A stretch of 40,895 nucleotides of DNA from a bacterium (GTDB lineage Bacteria; UBA10199; 2-02-FULL-44-16; DYJF01): the NCBI GenBank assembly GCA_041739675.1, contig JBGSNL010000005.1, positions 1-40,895 of the forward strand, in the 5' to 3' direction. Of the stretch, positions 31,399-37,374 are shown piece after piece. Every line of letters begins with the position of its first letter. The first letter of the stretch is position 1. The position numbers and the translations under genes are program-made. The notes under the pieces are model-generated. The model did no database searches. It was not told where the DNA came from and worked only from the letters and a program-made list of their open reading frames with translations.

Positions 31399-32450
31399 TT
31401 GCCTTTACTCTTTTTTGCGGCGGATTTCTTCTTGGTTGTCTTTGTGCTCTTGTACTTTGCCTTTGCGCTTGCTTTGCCTTTGCTCTTGCTTTTGGAAAGG
31501 GCAGCGTAGCTCTTTTTGTTTTTCGGGAGGCGGTAGTGAGGTTGGGCCTGCGGGGCGGTTGGATGTCGGAACTGAACCTTCGGCTCCGCGAATTGCAGCT
31601 TTGGGGCGGCGGGCGGCGGCAATTTCAGATTGAGCTGTTTCGACGATTTTGCAAAGTGCCAGTCGCTCAAGAGGGCTACGAATCGCGGATCGTCTTTGAT
31701 GATATAAAAATCGTCCCCCACCGCAAGCCAGGTCATTATGACATCCGGCCTTTCGCGGTAGGCCGCTTTGAGCGATTCCATTGCATCATCCTGATCTCCC
31801 CTGGCAGCATAGTAAGCGGCAAGATATTCCTGTGTCTGAAAATCGGCGCCGAGTTTCGTCAGGTCCACTTTCTTCATGACCTTGTCGGCCTTATCCGGTT
31901 CGTTATTCGAAGCGAAAACTGCAGCCATCAGAAGGTCGGTCTCCTGCTTATGTTGCGGCGTCGCCGATCCTCCGGCTTTTTTGTAGAACTTGACTGAGTT
32001 TTCGGCGAACTGTTCCTGCGTGATACCGTTCGCCTTCAGGAAGAGAAAGAGGTTGTGATAGGCAATTCCCAGATTTTGATAATACTGATGCGCTTCCGAA
32101 TGTTTGGGGTGCTTCTTCGATGTCTCATGCATCACGATTCTCGTGACTTCGCGCAAAAGATACAATGATTTTGCGGTCGTCGGCTGTTCCCGAAGCTCGA
32201 TCGCCGCCTCATTGAGATTTCCTCTCGCCAACGCATCGATCACGTCGGCGGATATCGGCTTCTGCGGCTCCTCTTTTTTTATCTGCTCCTGTTTCACCTG
32301 CGCTGCCTTCACTTTTTTAACCTTCGATTTGGCGAAGGCAGATTGAGGATTAAGAATGAGAATGAAACCAATAAGAACGCATAAAAGCTGAAAGTTCAAA
32401 TGACCTTCTGTTTTCTGATCACTGATCACTGATCTCTGATCACTGTTCAC
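31395..32450 (-). CDS. Exported TPR-like alpha-helical protein with Lys-rich C-terminal tail
   Basis: Signal peptide (LLCVLIGFILILNPQSAFA), LAAYYAARGDQDDAMESLKAAY...DDF..IKDDPRF TPR/cap pattern, K/S/A-rich tail. Confidence 0.7.
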   Translation of the reverse strand: MNSDQRSVISDQKTEGHLNFQLLCVLIGFILILNPQSAFAKSKVKKVKAAQVKQEQIKKEEPQKPISADVIDALARGNLNEAAIELREQPTTAKSLYLLREVTRIVMHETSKKHPKHSEAHQYYQNLGIAYHNLFLFLKANGITQEQFAENSVKFYKKAGGSATPQHKQETDLLMAAVFASNNEPDKADKVMKKVDLTKLGADFQTQEYLAAYYAARGDQDDAMESLKAAYRERPDVIMTWLAVGDDFYIIKDDPRFVALLSDWHFAKSSKQLNLKLPPPAAPKLQFAEPKVQFRHPTAPQAQPHYRLPKNKKSYAALSKSKSKGKASAKAKYKSTKTTKKKSAAKKSKGK

Positions 32451-32456
32451 TGTTTT
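32415..32456. repeat. Tandem heptamer repeat (CTGATCA)x6, degenerate
   Basis: CTGATCA CTGATCA CTGATCT CTGATCA CTGTTCA CTGTTTT spanning the GTGA stop/start overlap. Confidence 0.88.
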
Positions 32457-33148
32457 TGCTCCTTCGATATCGTAAAATCAGCATAGTCGCACGCGGCCGC
32501 TGTATGTGTGGCGTTGCCGTCGGTCAAAACCGCGATGCCGGACGGTTTCTTTTTGAGTTCTCCGCCGAAGAGTTCCTTATAATCTGCCGGCACGTTGACA
32601 GTGTGACTCACCCATTTATTGAGATTTAGAGCTCCGCTGTCCGCCACCTTGATTTTAAGCTTTCCGTCTCTGCGCGTTACCGTCTGCGCTACAGGCAAAG
32701 AGGTGGACCAGACGTATTTGATCGCGTCGCCGGTGTAGGTGCCGATAATGACATATACTCCGCATGCGCTGTCGTTTTTGTTGTCGTCATTTTCTGCGGC
32801 GCCTTTCGGCAATTCTCTCGCCCGCCACTTCCAGCTCAGGTACGGATACCGTTCAAGGTCCCAGTTGAAATATCGCATTGTCTGTTGGGAGAGATCCTTG
32901 TCATCTTTCGCCTTCAGATATTTTCGGCCGTTCTCTTCAGCGATCTGATAGACCTCCTGAGCCTTGCCCCGCTGAAACGGCCATGTGCGCCATTTGGAAG
33001 GAAATTTTCCGGCCTGATAATCGGCAAAGTTGTCGATTACAAGGACGGTCCCGATCTGGGATTCCTGCCGGGATTCCTCACCCGAGACCTTCAAAGCGAG
33101 CGAAAAGATGAATGCAAAAGACAGCAAAATGAGGATTGTTTTGCGCAT
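32447..33148 (-). CDS. DUF3047-like exported protein
   Basis: Signal peptide; P.LSWKW, IKYVWS, WV....V..DY..LFG, IAV.TD pattern. Confidence 0.75.
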   Translation of the reverse strand: MRKTILILLSFAFIFSLALKVSGEESRQESQIGTVLVIDNFADYQAGKFPSKWRTWPFQRGKAQEVYQIAEENGRKYLKAKDDKDLSQQTMRYFNWDLERYPYLSWKWRARELPKGAAENDDNKNDSACGVYVIIGTYTGDAIKYVWSTSLPVAQTVTRRDGKLKIKVADSGALNLNKWVSHTVNVPADYKELFGGELKKKPSGIAVLTDGNATHTAAACDYADFTISKEQKQ

Positions 33149-33207
33149 AAGGCCGCATATAGGAGGTTTTTACCGATTCGTCAATGAAGGAGAGGGTTAC
33201 CGACCCA

Positions 33208-33325
33208 ATCGCTTTTCATCGCTCTTTCATCGCCGTTCCATCGCCTGATCATCGCAGTTAACTGCAGAGAACAGATAAAAGATTCAGAGAACAGAGAACC
33301 GAGCAACTGTGAAAAGAGAAAAGAG
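33208..33325. repeat. Low-complexity tandem repeats downstream of four-helix gene A
   Basis: Five ATCGC-cored 10-11-mers, palindrome GCAGTTAACTGC, then ACAGAGA/AAAAGAG-type heptamers. Confidence 0.75.
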
Positions 33326-33326
33326 C

Positions 33327-33662
33327 TCATGGCAGAGCCCTCACTTGAACGTATGCCAACCGAAGCCGCGACTTGAGCGAATCAAGCTCAGTACTTTCGA
33401 TAAGGCCGAAGGCGCGAGCAAGATCAAGAGCTGCGGAGACTTCCGCGATTGAACCGAGCGAGATGCGGAAGAACCAGTACCGCTCGCGACCGCGCCTGCT
33501 TTTCCCATTGCCTTCCGCAAGATTGAGAATAGTGGAGGTTGTTGCACGGCGTAGCTGATCAACAAGATCACCATGTCCTTTGGGCCACCTGGCCACCATC
33601 CTTGCAACCTCCTCTGCAATTGAGACTAACTGCCTGTAGCACTCCAGTTTTTCGTGATTCAT
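33327..33662 (-). CDS. Four helix bundle protein A (23S rRNA IVS-protein / Avd-like family)
   Basis: HEKLECY...DQLRRA..S..LNLAEG...FF.IS.GS..EV...LD; AAGGAGG SD. Confidence 0.9.
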   Translation of the reverse strand: MNHEKLECYRQLVSIAEEVARMVARWPKGHGDLVDQLRRATTSTILNLAEGNGKSRRGRERYWFFRISLGSIAEVSAALDLARAFGLIESTELDSLKSRLRLAYVQVRALP

Positions 33663-33666
33663 GACT

Positions 33667-33740
33667 CCTCCTTTGGTTTGTCAGTTATCGCTGCCCTCTC
33701 ATAAGGGTGGAGGGCAGCGATAACTGACAAACCTAGGAGG
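33667..33740. repeat. Perfect 24-bp inverted repeat (33675-33698 / 33710-33733, 11-nt loop) extending into both SD sequences
   Basis: GGTTTGTCAGTTATCGCTGCCCTC / GAGGGCAGCGATAACTGACAAACC, flanked by CCTCCT and AGGAGG. Confidence 0.95.
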
Positions 33741-33745
33741 CGTTT

Positions 33746-34081
33746 ATGTTGCACGAAAAATTGGAATGCTACCAAAGGGCAGTCGGATTGGCAGAGGAGT
33801 TAAGCAAGGAGGGTGCCAGGTGGCCCCGCGGCCTTGGCTATCTATATGATCAGCTGCGCCGCGCAATCGCGTCAGTCGTTCTCAATATTGCAGAAGGCAA
33901 CGCGCGTAGAAGCACAGCCGAGCGTCGCCGCTTCTTCGAGATCGCCCGCGCCTCAGCGGTTGAGGTATCTGCGTGCATCGATCTCGCGTCATCCTTCGGT
34001 GTAATGACGCCGCTCTCTGCAAGGTCGGTCAAGGTTCGCCTCACCGAGGTCAGCAAGATGCTCTGGGCTCTAATGAAATAG
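33746..34081 (+). CDS. Four helix bundle protein B (same family, divergent orientation)
   Basis: HEKLECY...DQLRRA..S..LNIAEG...RFFEIARAS..EVSA..D; AGGAGG SD. Confidence 0.9.
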   Translation: MLHEKLECYQRAVGLAEELSKEGARWPRGLGYLYDQLRRAIASVVLNIAEGNARRSTAERRRFFEIARASAVEVSACIDLASSFGVMTPLSARSVKVRLTEVSKMLWALMK

Positions 34082-34141
34082 AAATCTCTGAACCGTCGCA
34101 GTTCGCACACCGGTTCTTGTTTTTACTTTCATCACCCGCCC

Positions 34142-34162
34142 CACATACCACCTACCACCTAC
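34142..34162. repeat. Tandem heptamer (CACCTAC)x3 followed by a T run
   Basis: CACATAC CACCTAC CACCTAC TTTTTTT. Confidence 0.65.
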
Positions 34163-34263
34163 TTTTTTTGCGCTTTTCCCACCGCTTGCAATGGGGTGGG
34201 GAGGGGAGTAAGTGGGGGGCAGTTAATACTTTTTACGGGCTTGCTCCGTTACCCGTGGTTTCT

Positions 34264-35547
34264 ATGAATTATAGCCTGCGATATGATTTCTATCCGGTTG
34301 GCCAAGGGTTATTTACATCCGGTACGATTCGTCATCCAAATGATCATCAGAGATTTAGCTGGGTATATGATTGTGGTACAAGCTCATCGCTACAGAAAGA
34401 AGGGAAAGAATTACTTTCAAAAGCGTATGGTCGTTTAAAAGAAAACATCGGACGAAATAACGATCAAAAAAACGACCAGTCAAAACCAACACTCGATCTA
34501 GTTGCCATATCCCATTTTGATAAAGACCATATCAATGGTTTCGACAATCTCTTTCCTCAGTTTAATGTTAAAAGAATCTTACTTCCCTATATGCCTTTAT
34601 GGCAACGGTTGATAGTGGCTTTTGAAGAAAAGATTCGACCGCTCGCTAGAAAAAAACAGATTAACCCTATGATGCATTTTTTTATTAATCCTGTTTCCTA
34701 CATCAAAAAAGCAATTGATGGCGTTGAGATCGTTCTTGTGCCACCTACTCCTAAACAAACGATAGTGTCGTCCAATGAAGACTCTGAGGAGATGAATGAT
34801 TTTGTTCTGCAAATTGATGAACGTGTTCTGTCTGAAGAAGAAAAAGGCGACCTAAATATAACTGTGCCAGCGAACACTAAGATCAAATTTGTGAAAGACG
34901 GAGGCAGGCTTTACATCAATGGCATATGGGAGTTCGTGCCCTACAATGAAGCAAAATTAGATGAAAAGGCGACGTCTGGATTTCAAAAAGAGGTAGATGA
35001 TAGAAGAAATGTTTTGTATAGCGAGAATCCTGACGCTATCCAGAAAGCTCTTCTGGATCTAAAAGATATCTATGGTCAAACATTTGGAAACCAAAAAAGA
35101 AACAAAAATATAATTTCTTTGTTTCTTTATGGTGGTCCAATCCATGCGAAGCACTGTTGTCCATTGTTTCAAGCCATGTATTTTGAGAAGGTGTCGTTAC
35201 GTCCGAACTTACGGATAACTTCTTTGTGTCCTGATCGATGTGGAATCCTTTATACAGGAGATGGTTATCTCAACACAACGAGCAGGATCAAAGCTTTAAA
35301 AACGTATCTTAATTCTAATCGCATTGCTAAATTACATACCTTGCAAGTAATGCATCACGGTGCGAAAGGAAACTGCCATAGAGATGTGCCTACCGAATTT
35401 AATCCCGTTGTAAGCCTTTTTAGTTCAGATCCTGATTCAAAGAGATATAGGCATCCTAATGCCTCAGTGCTTCGTTATTTCGTGTCTCATGGACCAGTGC
35501 TCGTTGACAAGAAATGCGGTGCGACAATATTTTTTTTCTTTCACTAG
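34264..35547 (+). CDS. Stand-alone ComEC-like metallo-beta-lactamase-fold hydrolase, AT-rich
   Basis: PVGQG, YDCGT, ISHFDKDH, YTGD, HHGA, YRHP; start at MNYSLRY (upstream ORF extension overlaps gene B and repeats). Confidence 0.82.
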   Translation: MNYSLRYDFYPVGQGLFTSGTIRHPNDHQRFSWVYDCGTSSSLQKEGKELLSKAYGRLKENIGRNNDQKNDQSKPTLDLVAISHFDKDHINGFDNLFPQFNVKRILLPYMPLWQRLIVAFEEKIRPLARKKQINPMMHFFINPVSYIKKAIDGVEIVLVPPTPKQTIVSSNEDSEEMNDFVLQIDERVLSEEEKGDLNITVPANTKIKFVKDGGRLYINGIWEFVPYNEAKLDEKATSGFQKEVDDRRNVLYSENPDAIQKALLDLKDIYGQTFGNQKRNKNIISLFLYGGPIHAKHCCPLFQAMYFEKVSLRPNLRITSLCPDRCGILYTGDGYLNTTSRIKALKTYLNSNRIAKLHTLQVMHHGAKGNCHRDVPTEFNPVVSLFSSDPDSKRYRHPNASVLRYFVSHGPVLVDKKCGATIFFFFH

Positions 35548-35601
35548 AAGACACATGGCTCCATTTTGATTTGCTAAGATTCTTGGTGAGAAAGATAGCT
35601 G

Positions 35602-35656
35602 GTGAATACAAATATATAGGCTTCCCCTTTTTAACTCAAATTGCGGGAGGCAGGGA
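35602..35656 (+). repeat. ~55-bp direct repeat, copy 1 (after the MBL gene)
   Basis: GTGAATACAAAT...TCCCCTT.TTAACTCAAATTGCGGGA; 45/55 identical to copy 2 by hand alignment. Confidence 0.85.
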
Positions 35657-35725
35657 CGGTTTAATAAGGGTTATTAATGGTCATCAACTTCACCCACGGT
35701 TTATATAGGTATTATTTTAAGCGAT

Positions 35726-36355
35726 ATGACACTATATAAGTATCTTACCGAAGAGCATGCCATATCCATGGTGGAAAACGGTATTGTGCGTATCGGTACA
35801 TTATATGAATTTCGAGATATTGAACGCCATGGGGGTGTCCGCGGGGATGAAGAGGAGGGAGTCAAATCAACACACTTAGGCGGTCCTTATGAGTTGTCAG
35901 ATAATTCTTCGATCCCAGAATTTCTAAAAGGAATGATAAAAATCAAAGGGGGAGCAAAAATCAAAGAAGGAAAACTAACAAATATTACGCGTGTCGATCA
36001 AAGTCCAAATTTTTATATATATTGTACAAGTAAAATTTACAATAAAACTCTGAAATATAGATTCGGAGGTGCTTGCGTAGAAATTACGGATTATCATCAT
36101 TTCTTTCGAGAGCTATTAAAGACACTGAATCAAATTATCCCCATAAAAGAGGTTGGACTTTATGACTGCATATATACTGAAAAATCAGTTGACCACACCA
36201 ATTGGTCGCAGACTCATCCAGCTCTCATGAAGCCGCCTCGATATTCTGAAGAATGCGAAGTGCGGGCACTATGGCAACCGATCGATTTACAATCGGATCT
36301 AAAACCCCAAATATTTCAATGTAAAACGATAACACAGCATTGCAAAATAAAATGA
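35726..36355 (+). CDS. Hypothetical protein, DUF2971-like, AT-rich
   Basis: LYKY N-terminus, GD..EG, YIYCTS, GACVEI, K...YS.E.EVR pattern. Confidence 0.6.
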   Translation: MTLYKYLTEEHAISMVENGIVRIGTLYEFRDIERHGGVRGDEEEGVKSTHLGGPYELSDNSSIPEFLKGMIKIKGGAKIKEGKLTNITRVDQSPNFYIYCTSKIYNKTLKYRFGGACVEITDYHHFFRELLKTLNQIIPIKEVGLYDCIYTEKSVDHTNWSQTHPALMKPPRYSEECEVRALWQPIDLQSDLKPQIFQCKTITQHCKIK

Positions 36356-36421
36356 ATCGCCTTCGTTACCTCACTAGTCTGAGGGTTTTGAAAAAGGGGA
36401 CGTTTCCCGGTAACTAAACCA

Positions 36422-36476
36422 GTGAATACAAATGCGTGGGGCTCCCCTTGTTAACTCAAATTGCGGGAAGTGGGGA
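36422..36476 (+). repeat. ~55-bp direct repeat, copy 2 (after the DUF2971-like gene)
   Basis: Same blocks GTGAATACAAAT and TTAACTCAAATTGCGGGA at identical spacing. Confidence 0.85.
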
Positions 36477-36654
36477 TAAAGGGGTCAGTCCCCATATAGA
36501 TAAGTATCCGAAATCATTCATTATCGATTTTGAGGAAACGGGTGTTTTGGGTGTTTTAATCCTCTCATTTTTTTTGAACTGCAACCGAATCGGGATGGGC
36601 GAGAACTTCAGTGCTTTTACTGATCACCAATCACTGAATTCCATAGCGGCGGGT

Positions 36655-37374
36655 TCAGGCTGAGATTGTCTTCAAGAGATTCTTCAGATCGGCCGGCAAA
36701 TCCGATTCGAAGCTCATTCGCCTCCCCGTCACAGGATGCGAAAATCCAATGGCGCTTGCGTGGAGAAAATGTCGGCCAAGCGCGAGCGTATCTTCGCTCC
36801 GCTTTTTTGGATTTTGATAAAGATGGTCGCCTGCGATGGGAAAACCCATCGATGCAAGATGGACGCGGATCTGGTGGCGGACGCCGGTCTCAATTTGCAC
36901 GCTGAGAAGCGCAAAGTTCGTACCAAATCGCTTGATGACCTTGAAATCCGTTTTTGCGGGCCGGCCGCCTGAACCCACGACCATCTTTTTTTTCTTCCTC
37001 GGATGATGCGAAATGGGTTTGGAGATTGTTCCCTTTGCCGGCGGATTTCCTATAACGAGCGCGAGATATTCCTTGTCGACTTTTCTCTCATCGAATTGGA
37101 GACGCAGGAACTCATACGCCTCGGGCGTCCTTGCCGCGATCATGAGACCGGACGTGTCGTTGTCGAGCCTGTGCATGAGGCCCGCTTCCAGCTCGCCCTT
37201 GGGGAGTTCCTTGAGTTTTGGGAATTTCGCGATGAGCCAGGATGCGAGCGTGCCGGCGTTTTTTTTCGCAAGGGAGACTGCCGGCATTCCGGCCGGTTTC
37301 TCAACGACTATCACCGACTCATCTTTATAGATGATGCGCGGCGCATTCAAAGCATTCAAATTCGAGGCTCGCAT
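36655..37374 (-). CDS. RluA-family RNA pseudouridine synthase (start uncertain)
   Basis: KPAGM, HRLDNDTSGL, ETGVRHQIRVH, GD.LY, FLHA..I.F.HP. Confidence 0.92.
   Translation of the reverse strand: MRASNLNALNAPRIIYKDESVIVVEKPAGMPAVSLAKKNAGTLASWLIAKFPKLKELPKGELEAGLMHRLDNDTSGLMIAARTPEAYEFLRLQFDERKVDKEYLALVIGNPPAKGTISKPISHHPRKKKKMVVGSGGRPAKTDFKVIKRFGTNFALLSVQIETGVRHQIRVHLASMGFPIAGDHLYQNPKKRSEDTLALGRHFLHASAIGFSHPVTGRRMSFESDLPADLKNLLKTISA

Follow-up and report, generated by a model that had tools for sequence, protein, structure and literature searches.

The 40,895 nt of contig JBGSNL010000005.1 analysed here (the window) contain one copy of a cassette of ~0.9 kb, with the order tail, gene A, hairpin, gene B, in which two genes for four-helix-bundle proteins diverge from a central palindrome. 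As far as mobility can be read from sequence, genome comparison shows that such cassettes have changed place; we infer the mechanism by which they did so. The cassette is probably a selfish mobile element, and it encodes only the two bundle proteins, with no nuclease, recombinase or transposase. The explanation that we prefer, to which we give slightly less than an even chance, is that its selfish spread would proceed through a folded single-stranded or circular DNA intermediate handled by a ring of the A and B proteins.

In the window copy (C85), gene A (33327-33662, minus strand) and gene B (33746-34081, plus strand), both of 111 aa, point away from each other across 83 nt, and their products are identical at 54 of 111 residues, in agreement with the sequence-only reading, which had described two paralogues about half identical. 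Between them lies the perfect 24-bp inverted repeat seen in that reading, whose arms (33675-33698 and 33710-33733) are exactly complementary and enclose a polar loop of 11 nt (33699-33709, plus strand) that reads T-C-R...G towards gene B and whose exact reverse complement is found in the sister copy C34. The palindrome does not cover both ribosome-binding sites, as had been claimed: the Shine-Dalgarno sites of gene A (33665-33672, minus strand) and gene B (33735-33740, plus strand) fall immediately outside the perfect arms. The proposed pairing of the Shine-Dalgarno sequence with its complement does occur in an imperfect extension of the stem, though not within the perfect arms. Directly behind the stop codon of gene A come purine-rich degenerate repeats (tail block X1, 33266-33326, plus strand) and, at the outer left end of the copy, degenerate 6-7-mer repeats with an ATC core (tail block X2, 33208-33262, plus strand), where similarity to the copies C34 and C53 begins.

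The hairpin is not due to chance, since its folding z is about -14, none of 200 shuffles was equally stable and the palindrome is the joint second longest of the 52 perfect inverted repeats (arms of at least 14 nt) in the 1.9-Mb genome. Six of the seven longest perfect inverted repeats of the genome sit between pairs of PF05635/TIGR02436 genes. An assembly artefact was rejected as far as it could be tested: a contig of run X1, assembled independently and possibly from the source sample, covers 33583-33876, hairpin included, and no difference is listed for its arms or loop; in addition, contigs of runs X2 and X4, which stem from another study, contain a related pair with this hairpin, in which the loop is inverted and the arm changes are mirrored. 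The palindrome is therefore real.

PF05635 is a very widespread family with solved structures, for which we know of no function outside diversity-generating retroelements (DGRs). Both ORFs exceed the curated cut-offs of PF05635 (61.4 bits for A and 80.5 for B against 33.8) and TIGR02436 (58.5 and 74.1 against 24), which secures their earlier placement in the four-helix-bundle family of 23S rRNA intervening-sequence (IVS) proteins. Both proteins are basic, with net charges of +5 (A) and +6 (B) in the window and medians of +7.5 and +6, respectively, over all copies. The predicted model of A (pLDDT 94.7) has four helices and resembles 2GSC (TM 0.85-0.89) as well as 2RLD and the DGR protein Avd (TM 0.7-0.8). 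The family link between IVS proteins and Avd is pointed out in PMC10053308. 2GSC is described as a homopentamer, and a pentamer is known for Xcc0516 (PMC4990558); Avd is described as a positively charged pentamer that acts with the DGR reverse transcriptase and RNA (PMC6182149). A and B would likely form a mixed ring.

A tblastn search of the genome of the window (G000; 1.9 Mb, 95% complete) retrieved six intact pairs (the window copy, C34, two on C31, C49 and C72), together with five half copies located at contig ends, a copy whose centre is replaced (C53), a lone gene with this type of hairpin, flanked by direct repeats (C25), and one fragment behind the C72 pair. A strict hairpin scan of the same genome gave seven matches, six at cassettes and one an unrelated 10-bp stem, and no solo hairpin lacking a bundle gene. 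Protein B had matches in 26 of 40 relatives and head-to-head pairs were found in 11 of them, which contribute 30 further intact pairs, so that 36 are known in 12 of 41 genomes. Unless stated otherwise, the counts given here are over these 36, leaving out the copies with broken centres (C53, L046, L047 and L048) and all singles; since sites and kin are non-independent, the counts overstate significance. All 36 carry the hairpin, in line with a palindromic spacer shared by other divergent pairs of the family, and it is also kept by the partnerless single genes C25, L052 and L155. Among the best 80 of 438 matches in species-representative genomes, further hairpin pairs occurred in records labelled as uncultured delta proteobacteria, Oligoflexia, Pseudomonadota and Myxococcota, and the weaker of these matches were mostly single genes without the hairpin. 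Viral contigs gave two matches, neither of them an intact pair. At C25:56200-56800 and at L041, a single-gene copy is framed by direct repeats of ~110 nt; the gene that it follows presumably encodes a protein whose C-terminus resembles ORF6N-type DNA-binding proteins.

Empty sites in relatives indicate that copies have been inserted. The window copy belongs to a 3.5-kb island (33188-36654, right edge approximate) made of the cassette and two AT-rich genes, which sits between DUF3047 and RluA-family genes and is absent in relatives: the two flanking genes are adjacent in G003, G011 and G020, three of the four relatives with a DUF3047 match, and one contig of run X3 fuses 33187 to 36764, without the 3.5 kb. 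For two copies of G001, a genome of the same genus, the flanks are contiguous and the site is empty in G000 (C10 and C65), and for five more distant copies both flanks lie on a single G000 contig that holds no bundle gene. Several copies stop, as judged by eye, just before a -35-like hexamer of the host or just after a stop codon or terminator, as expected of insertions that spare host genes. The many dispersed copies and the empty sites favour one of the earlier suggestions for the palindrome, that it is the site of a small mobile unit. Cargo genes as a part of the cassette were rejected, as the neighbours vary between copies. The assembled contigs contained no circle, excised form or new insertion. 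Synonymous divergence (dS) between sister copies is mostly 0.2-1.1, which makes the copies old, and the evidence is therefore for past mobility, not for current activity.

The same distribution bears on an alternative that we consider rather improbable, namely that A and B are a host-beneficial two-gene module (serving, for example, in stress or anti-phage responses) born from an old inverted duplication, with the palindrome as a duplicated leader kept by template switching, and that ordinary horizontal transfer, together with illegitimate recombination, distributed the module. A 1.9-Mb genome with at least 11 dispersed sites, carriers in 12 of 41 genomes, many decayed copies and differing neighbours speak against such a module, as do the single genes that retain the hairpin without a partner, the asymmetric loop, which has never been corrected away, and a PADLOC search without any match for A or B. 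Conversely, a host module would agree with the strong purifying selection on both genes described below, with the presence, in the island of this copy, of a gene for an MBL-fold protein that weakly resembles defence proteins, with the failure to find a mobility enzyme and with the fact that template switching alone can explain mirrored arms and loop inversions (PMC8794818).

Some features of the island and its surroundings can be described on their own. The first AT-rich gene (34264-35547, plus strand) encodes a 427-aa MBL-fold protein with partial, sub-cut-off similarity to LmuA, Avs1a and 6A-MBL, and the second (35726-36355, plus strand) a 209-aa protein with no significant match in Pfam, NCBIfam or PADLOC. 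Behind each of them lies one unit of a 55-nt direct repeat (35602-35656 and 36422-36476, 82% identical) that occurs nowhere else in the genome, a layout like that of a cassette array. Tandem 7-mer tracts at 32407-32453 and 36619-36637 belong to a family found on at least 12 other contigs, with a motif that differs from the cassette tails. A short conserved motif at 36475-36520 recurs at four other sites, twice in the vicinity of the C25 single gene and twice close to a Y1-type REP region on C31. Between gene B and the AT-rich genes there is an outward-facing promoter-like repeat (34186-34212, plus strand), consisting of a -35-like hexamer, 17 nt and a hexamer starting with TA, which fails the sigma-70 consensus scan. 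It has seven copies in the genome, four of them behind a bundle gene, and six of the seven (34186-34212 and those on C25, C31, C34, C60 and, twice, C69) precede DNA of 37-44% GC in a genome of 53%. This repeat is probably a neighbour of the cassette rather than a core part of it, and might serve foreign genes as a mobile promoter.

Each of the 36 pairs combines one A-type with one B-type gene, the two types being told apart by eleven alignment columns, most of them in helices 3 and 4; the window genes carry the corresponding signature residues, which fall at position 12 in helix 1, positions 68-72 in helix 3 and positions 101-107 in helix 4. In a tree built by a quick method from few columns, the proteins form two clades, each with its own A and its own B. 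A fresh inverted duplication, which the sequence-only reading had already argued against, was therefore rejected, given that A and B are old separate lineages in both clades of this quick tree. All 30 comparisons from 15 sister pairs yielded dN/dS values of 0.03-0.24. At the sequence level, these results show the pairing of A with B to be obligate and under purifying selection.

The spacer between A and B measures 80-89 nt in 35 copies and 142 nt in one. Counted from the loop outwards over the 36 pairs, an anchoring used because the MAFFT alignment was out of register for part of the rows, the stem is Watson-Crick paired in 682 of 720 cells with up to four pair types per position, and only 4 of the 38 unpaired cells are G-T. 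The count based on MAFFT, with part of the rows out of register, still gave 85% paired and double changes in 8 of 10 pairs. Sequence bias in the stem is limited to the four bases beside the loop, which are pyrimidine/purine-biased. The stem stays paired despite widely differing sequence, which marks it as conserved in structure. Arm differences between sisters are mirrored in both arms in 64 of 91 cases (ungapped; indels inflate both numbers). Template switching by itself is described to yield multi-base compensations, repaired stems and inverted loops (PMC8794818), so perfect arms and loop flips need no special enzyme and a perfect stem alone is no proof of selection. From the earlier alternative of selection or active homogenisation, homogenisation is upheld by the mirrored differences, and the perfect stem is dropped as an argument for selection; what does argue for selection, as read from the compared copies, is the kept spacing, the polar loop motif and the dN/dS values.

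The loop is 11-14 nt long and carries, on one strand, T-C-R...G, with T...G in all 36 copies and C as the second base in 35. Among 27 further hairpins, collected by eye from 77 loci, 24 start with TCR and 22 have the T-G closure. Relative to A and B, the motif faces one way in 22 copies and the other way in 14. The tree needs 10 changes of orientation, at least 8 of them on well-supported branches, and they are not clustered and are no fewer than shuffled labels need; the loop is flipped in 6 of 15 sister pairs. Loop inversion between copies, suspected earlier, is hence borne out, from the complete inversion that separates C85 from C34 to a flip of only the inner six loop bases between C31b and C72. 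No link of loop orientation was seen to the strand of the neighbour (rough ORF calls) or to the tail arrangement. Template switching does not account for the fact that the asymmetric loop has in no case been turned into a full palindrome, nor for the retention of the hairpin by single genes, and we take both as signs of a recognised site.

A polar loop between inverted repeats that is present in both orientations and flips between close sisters could be thought of as an invertible switch for phase variation, with the way the 11-12-nt loop faces selecting A or B for expression. We regard this as very improbable: there is no recombinase nearby, a sigma-70 consensus scan of 33000-34400 revealed no promoter, spacer and loop included, A and B are equally constrained in either orientation, and run X1 lists one orientation for the window copy (contigs drop rare variants). 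The missing sigma-70 consensus can instead be read as a sign that expression may depend on read-through, in line with an element acting at the RNA level, which we think unlikely. Here, the hairpin of a read-through transcript would mask the Shine-Dalgarno site for as long as neither RNase III nor the A/B ring has opened the hairpin, and the cassette would behave like an intervening sequence of mRNA that spreads by recombination. The extended stem pairs each Shine-Dalgarno site with the complement of the other, an RNase III gene was present in all five carriers searched, members of the family are reported in rRNA IVSs excised by RNase III (PMC4990558) and the loop is closed by T-G on one strand in 36 of 36 copies. 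However, that closure fails in 5 of the 27 further hairpins while the TCR start holds in 24, G-T accounts for no more than 4 of the 38 stem cells that are unpaired, the loop changes orientation freely with respect to the genes and shows no clear link to the strand of the neighbouring ORFs (as roughly called), the hairpin does not enclose the genes, contrary to the arrangement in an IVS, and there is no copy inside the 23S genes of G007 and G009. We weigh the free flipping and the scarcity of G-T somewhat against an RNA-level role. In Rfam, no family matched at gathering level; the five matches (E up to 1) were all far below it.

Homogenisation is not confined to the palindrome and reaches into both genes. 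We compared substitutions in 16 disjoint sister pairs, chosen by hand from the tree and comprising 32 of the 36 copies, and called a change mirrored when the same change had occurred in A and B within a copy. Mirrored substitutions exceeded anti-mirrored ones 136:31 overall and 70:7 at synonymous positions. In 11 same-genome pairs, a comparison that removes host codon bias, the ratios were 58:18 and 35:5, with the excess restricted to the first 80 columns (51:10) and missing from the last 42 (7:8). The window pair against C34 is uninformative alone (4:3). Because mirrored changes prevail to this extent, the inverted genes A and B are shown, as judged from substitution patterns, to exchange sequence, except at the C-terminal end, which holds the type-specific residues. 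A bare single strand of the cassette folds back on its central axis with about 200 pairs. Whatever the mobility of the cassette, this is a clear bacterial case of inverted coding paralogues that exchange synonymous changes while their C-terminal helices are kept distinct.

The repeat tails define the ends of the cassette. Sorted by eye, the tail arrangements of the 36 copies show block X2 outside X1 on the left in nine (including the window copy) and behind gene B in 22, and direct repeats on both sides in five; most copies have no target duplication. The right-hand X2 aligns directly with the left-hand X2 above shuffles in six of ten first-clade copies with a right-hand block, and in L004; in the second clade the alignment signal is weaker and inverted matches to L011 score too. 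Throughout, the tails resemble each other in simple repeats, at a level that exceeds shuffles only moderately. At L064, the X2-X1 stretch behind gene B matches the left flank of L034 at 86.5% identity over 104 nt, and at L011 about 108 nt of X2-X1 occur on both sides; in both copies gene B runs directly into X2-X1, the junction that a circle would have. These permutations fit a circle that would have been opened at different points of the tail, and they would also result from a tandem duplication with a subsequent deletion. We found neither terminal inverted repeats nor a regular target duplication, and the outer flanks had, in most copies and among the repeats listed, no inverted repeats above shuffles.

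Five broken copies in three genomes (C53, L039 and L046-L048) carry an inverted X1-X2 joint in place of their centre, as a polymerase that skips the folded gene pair would be expected to produce. Two of them, L046 and L047, are hairpin-less and occupy separate loci of G007; their replaced centre is the same (257 of 273 nt), as are both junctions, and the differences between their gene remnants are mostly synonymous (16:3). A shared centre next to synonymously diverged remnants implies that ectopic gene conversion between copies also moves sequence. Given these two copies, the hairpin may be dispensable in cis.

Simple-repeat tails at the 3' side of each gene and the structural match of the A model to Avd, described as a partner of reverse transcriptase and RNA in DGRs (PMC6182149), would also suit a retro-mobile, SINE-like cassette, in which an Avd-like ring would enlist a reverse transcriptase from another locus and insertion would be primed or marked by the tails. 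We find this improbable, since RVT_1 was not found in six of the 12 carriers, namely G000 (95% complete), G005, G011, G015, G019 and G040, and the permuted, doubled tail blocks fit a DNA circle better. There is no reverse transcriptase among the window neighbours either. Y1_Tnp occurs in 35 of 41 genomes and was not found in the carriers G001 (83% complete) and G040 (96%). Judged by RVT_1 and Y1_Tnp, no partner enzyme tracks with the cassette.

Searches of an open-access literature library gave no description of this cassette, and it departs in defining traits from the known systems that it most recalls. With the ORFs of 23S rRNA IVSs (S23p/PF05635; Coxiella, Leptospira) it has in common the protein family, the 2GSC fold, the nature of a small selfish unit with complementary sequence and a patchy distribution, as these are described in PMC4990558. 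An IVS has one gene inside its stem, whereas the cassette is intergenic, occupies many loci and has two different genes outside a central hairpin, and its genes are under purifying selection, unlike the Coxiella IVS ORF, which is reported to be decaying (PMC4990558). The window copy lies between protein genes and not in an rRNA gene, and the 23S genes of G007 and G009 contain no bundle gene (that of G000 is unassembled). The 23S rRNA gene of G007 (L170) has an ORF-less insertion of ~130-250 nt made of mirror-image short repeats, and an intact cassette lies ~480 nt downstream of that gene.

DGRs, as described in PMC3240598 and PMC6182149, share with the cassette an Avd-like basic four-helix bundle and a DNA hairpin with a free stem and a constrained loop, which in the BPP-1 DGR is the target signal (PMC3240598). 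The DGR hairpin has a stem of 8 bp and a 4-nt GRNA loop (PMC3240598), against 24 bp and 11-12 nt here, and the cassette has two subunit types and lacks reverse transcriptase, template repeat and variable repeat; between 30000 and 37000 we detected no template/variable repeat pair differing at adenines, the longest direct repeat being the 55-nt intergenic one. REPINs and bacterial MITEs (as presented in PMC3116915) are likewise small, dispersed and extragenic, with a hairpin, no transposase of their own and a proposed single-stranded intermediate. The cassette differs from them in carrying two conserved genes, a central inverted repeat and direct-oriented simple-repeat ends, and no link to RAYT/Y1 transposases was found in the 41 genomes. 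It has neither a transposase nor the terminal inverted repeats with target duplication of insertion sequences and MITEs, and the direct repeats at 5 of 36 copies are tail blocks. G000 has two Y1_Tnp genes, as well as REP-like palindromes with 14-18-nt arms and a 27-nt spacer (C79:39985, C60:27237, C36:10014), of which at least 12 copies are among the 40 longest repeats listed. In layout, the cassette comes close to a circovirus, with two divergent genes around a stem-loop, a conserved polar loop and palindrome repair by template switching as described in PMC2690592, the circle being in our case a putative one. It is only an analogy of layout: the cassette is chromosomal, in bacteria, and has no capsid gene, no loop octamer of the circovirus type and neither a Rep/HUH protein nor the Rep-like gene expected of a rolling-circle (CRESS-like) element.

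In the preferred model of a folded DNA intermediate, a strand of the cassette would fold back on itself, A against B, and template switching in this folded state would repair the arms, flip the loop and convert the genes. The A and B proteins, basic and Avd-like, would assemble into a mixed ring on the single-stranded element, which the ring would recognise by its hairpin loop; the arms would at the same time serve as the leaders of both genes. The intermediate might then close into a circle at the repeat tails and re-enter the chromosome by recombination inside the ATC-rich tail, via host enzymes. A cassette moving without a transposase would be a new kind of bacterial mobile DNA, would suggest what role Avd had before DGRs and would provide an origin for the short repeat tracts dispersed through these genomes. 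Shorter than 1 kb, with defined ends, two required subunits and a single polar cis-site, the cassette makes the function of PF05635 testable with a single synthetic construct.

More tentatively, and with the balance clearly on the side of doubt, the IVP/Avd four-helix-bundle family may supply the central protein to an as yet undescribed kind of minimal mobile element, represented in this lineage by a single-stranded DNA circle of <1 kb that folds back on itself and is arranged like a circovirus, with a mixed ring of two diverged subunits recognising the polar loop and insertion at simple-repeat tails without a classical transposase. The ORFs of rRNA IVSs and the Avd of DGRs would then be domesticated offshoots and the dispersed short repeats of these genomes the footprints of the element.

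Tail remnants of the second clade without genes were observed in G000 at C11:20586-20715, C34:10375-10504, C79:10164 and C31:52407, some of them as inverted pairs. The C11 remnant lies at the site of a decayed G001 cassette, next to the site of an intact cassette in G009.
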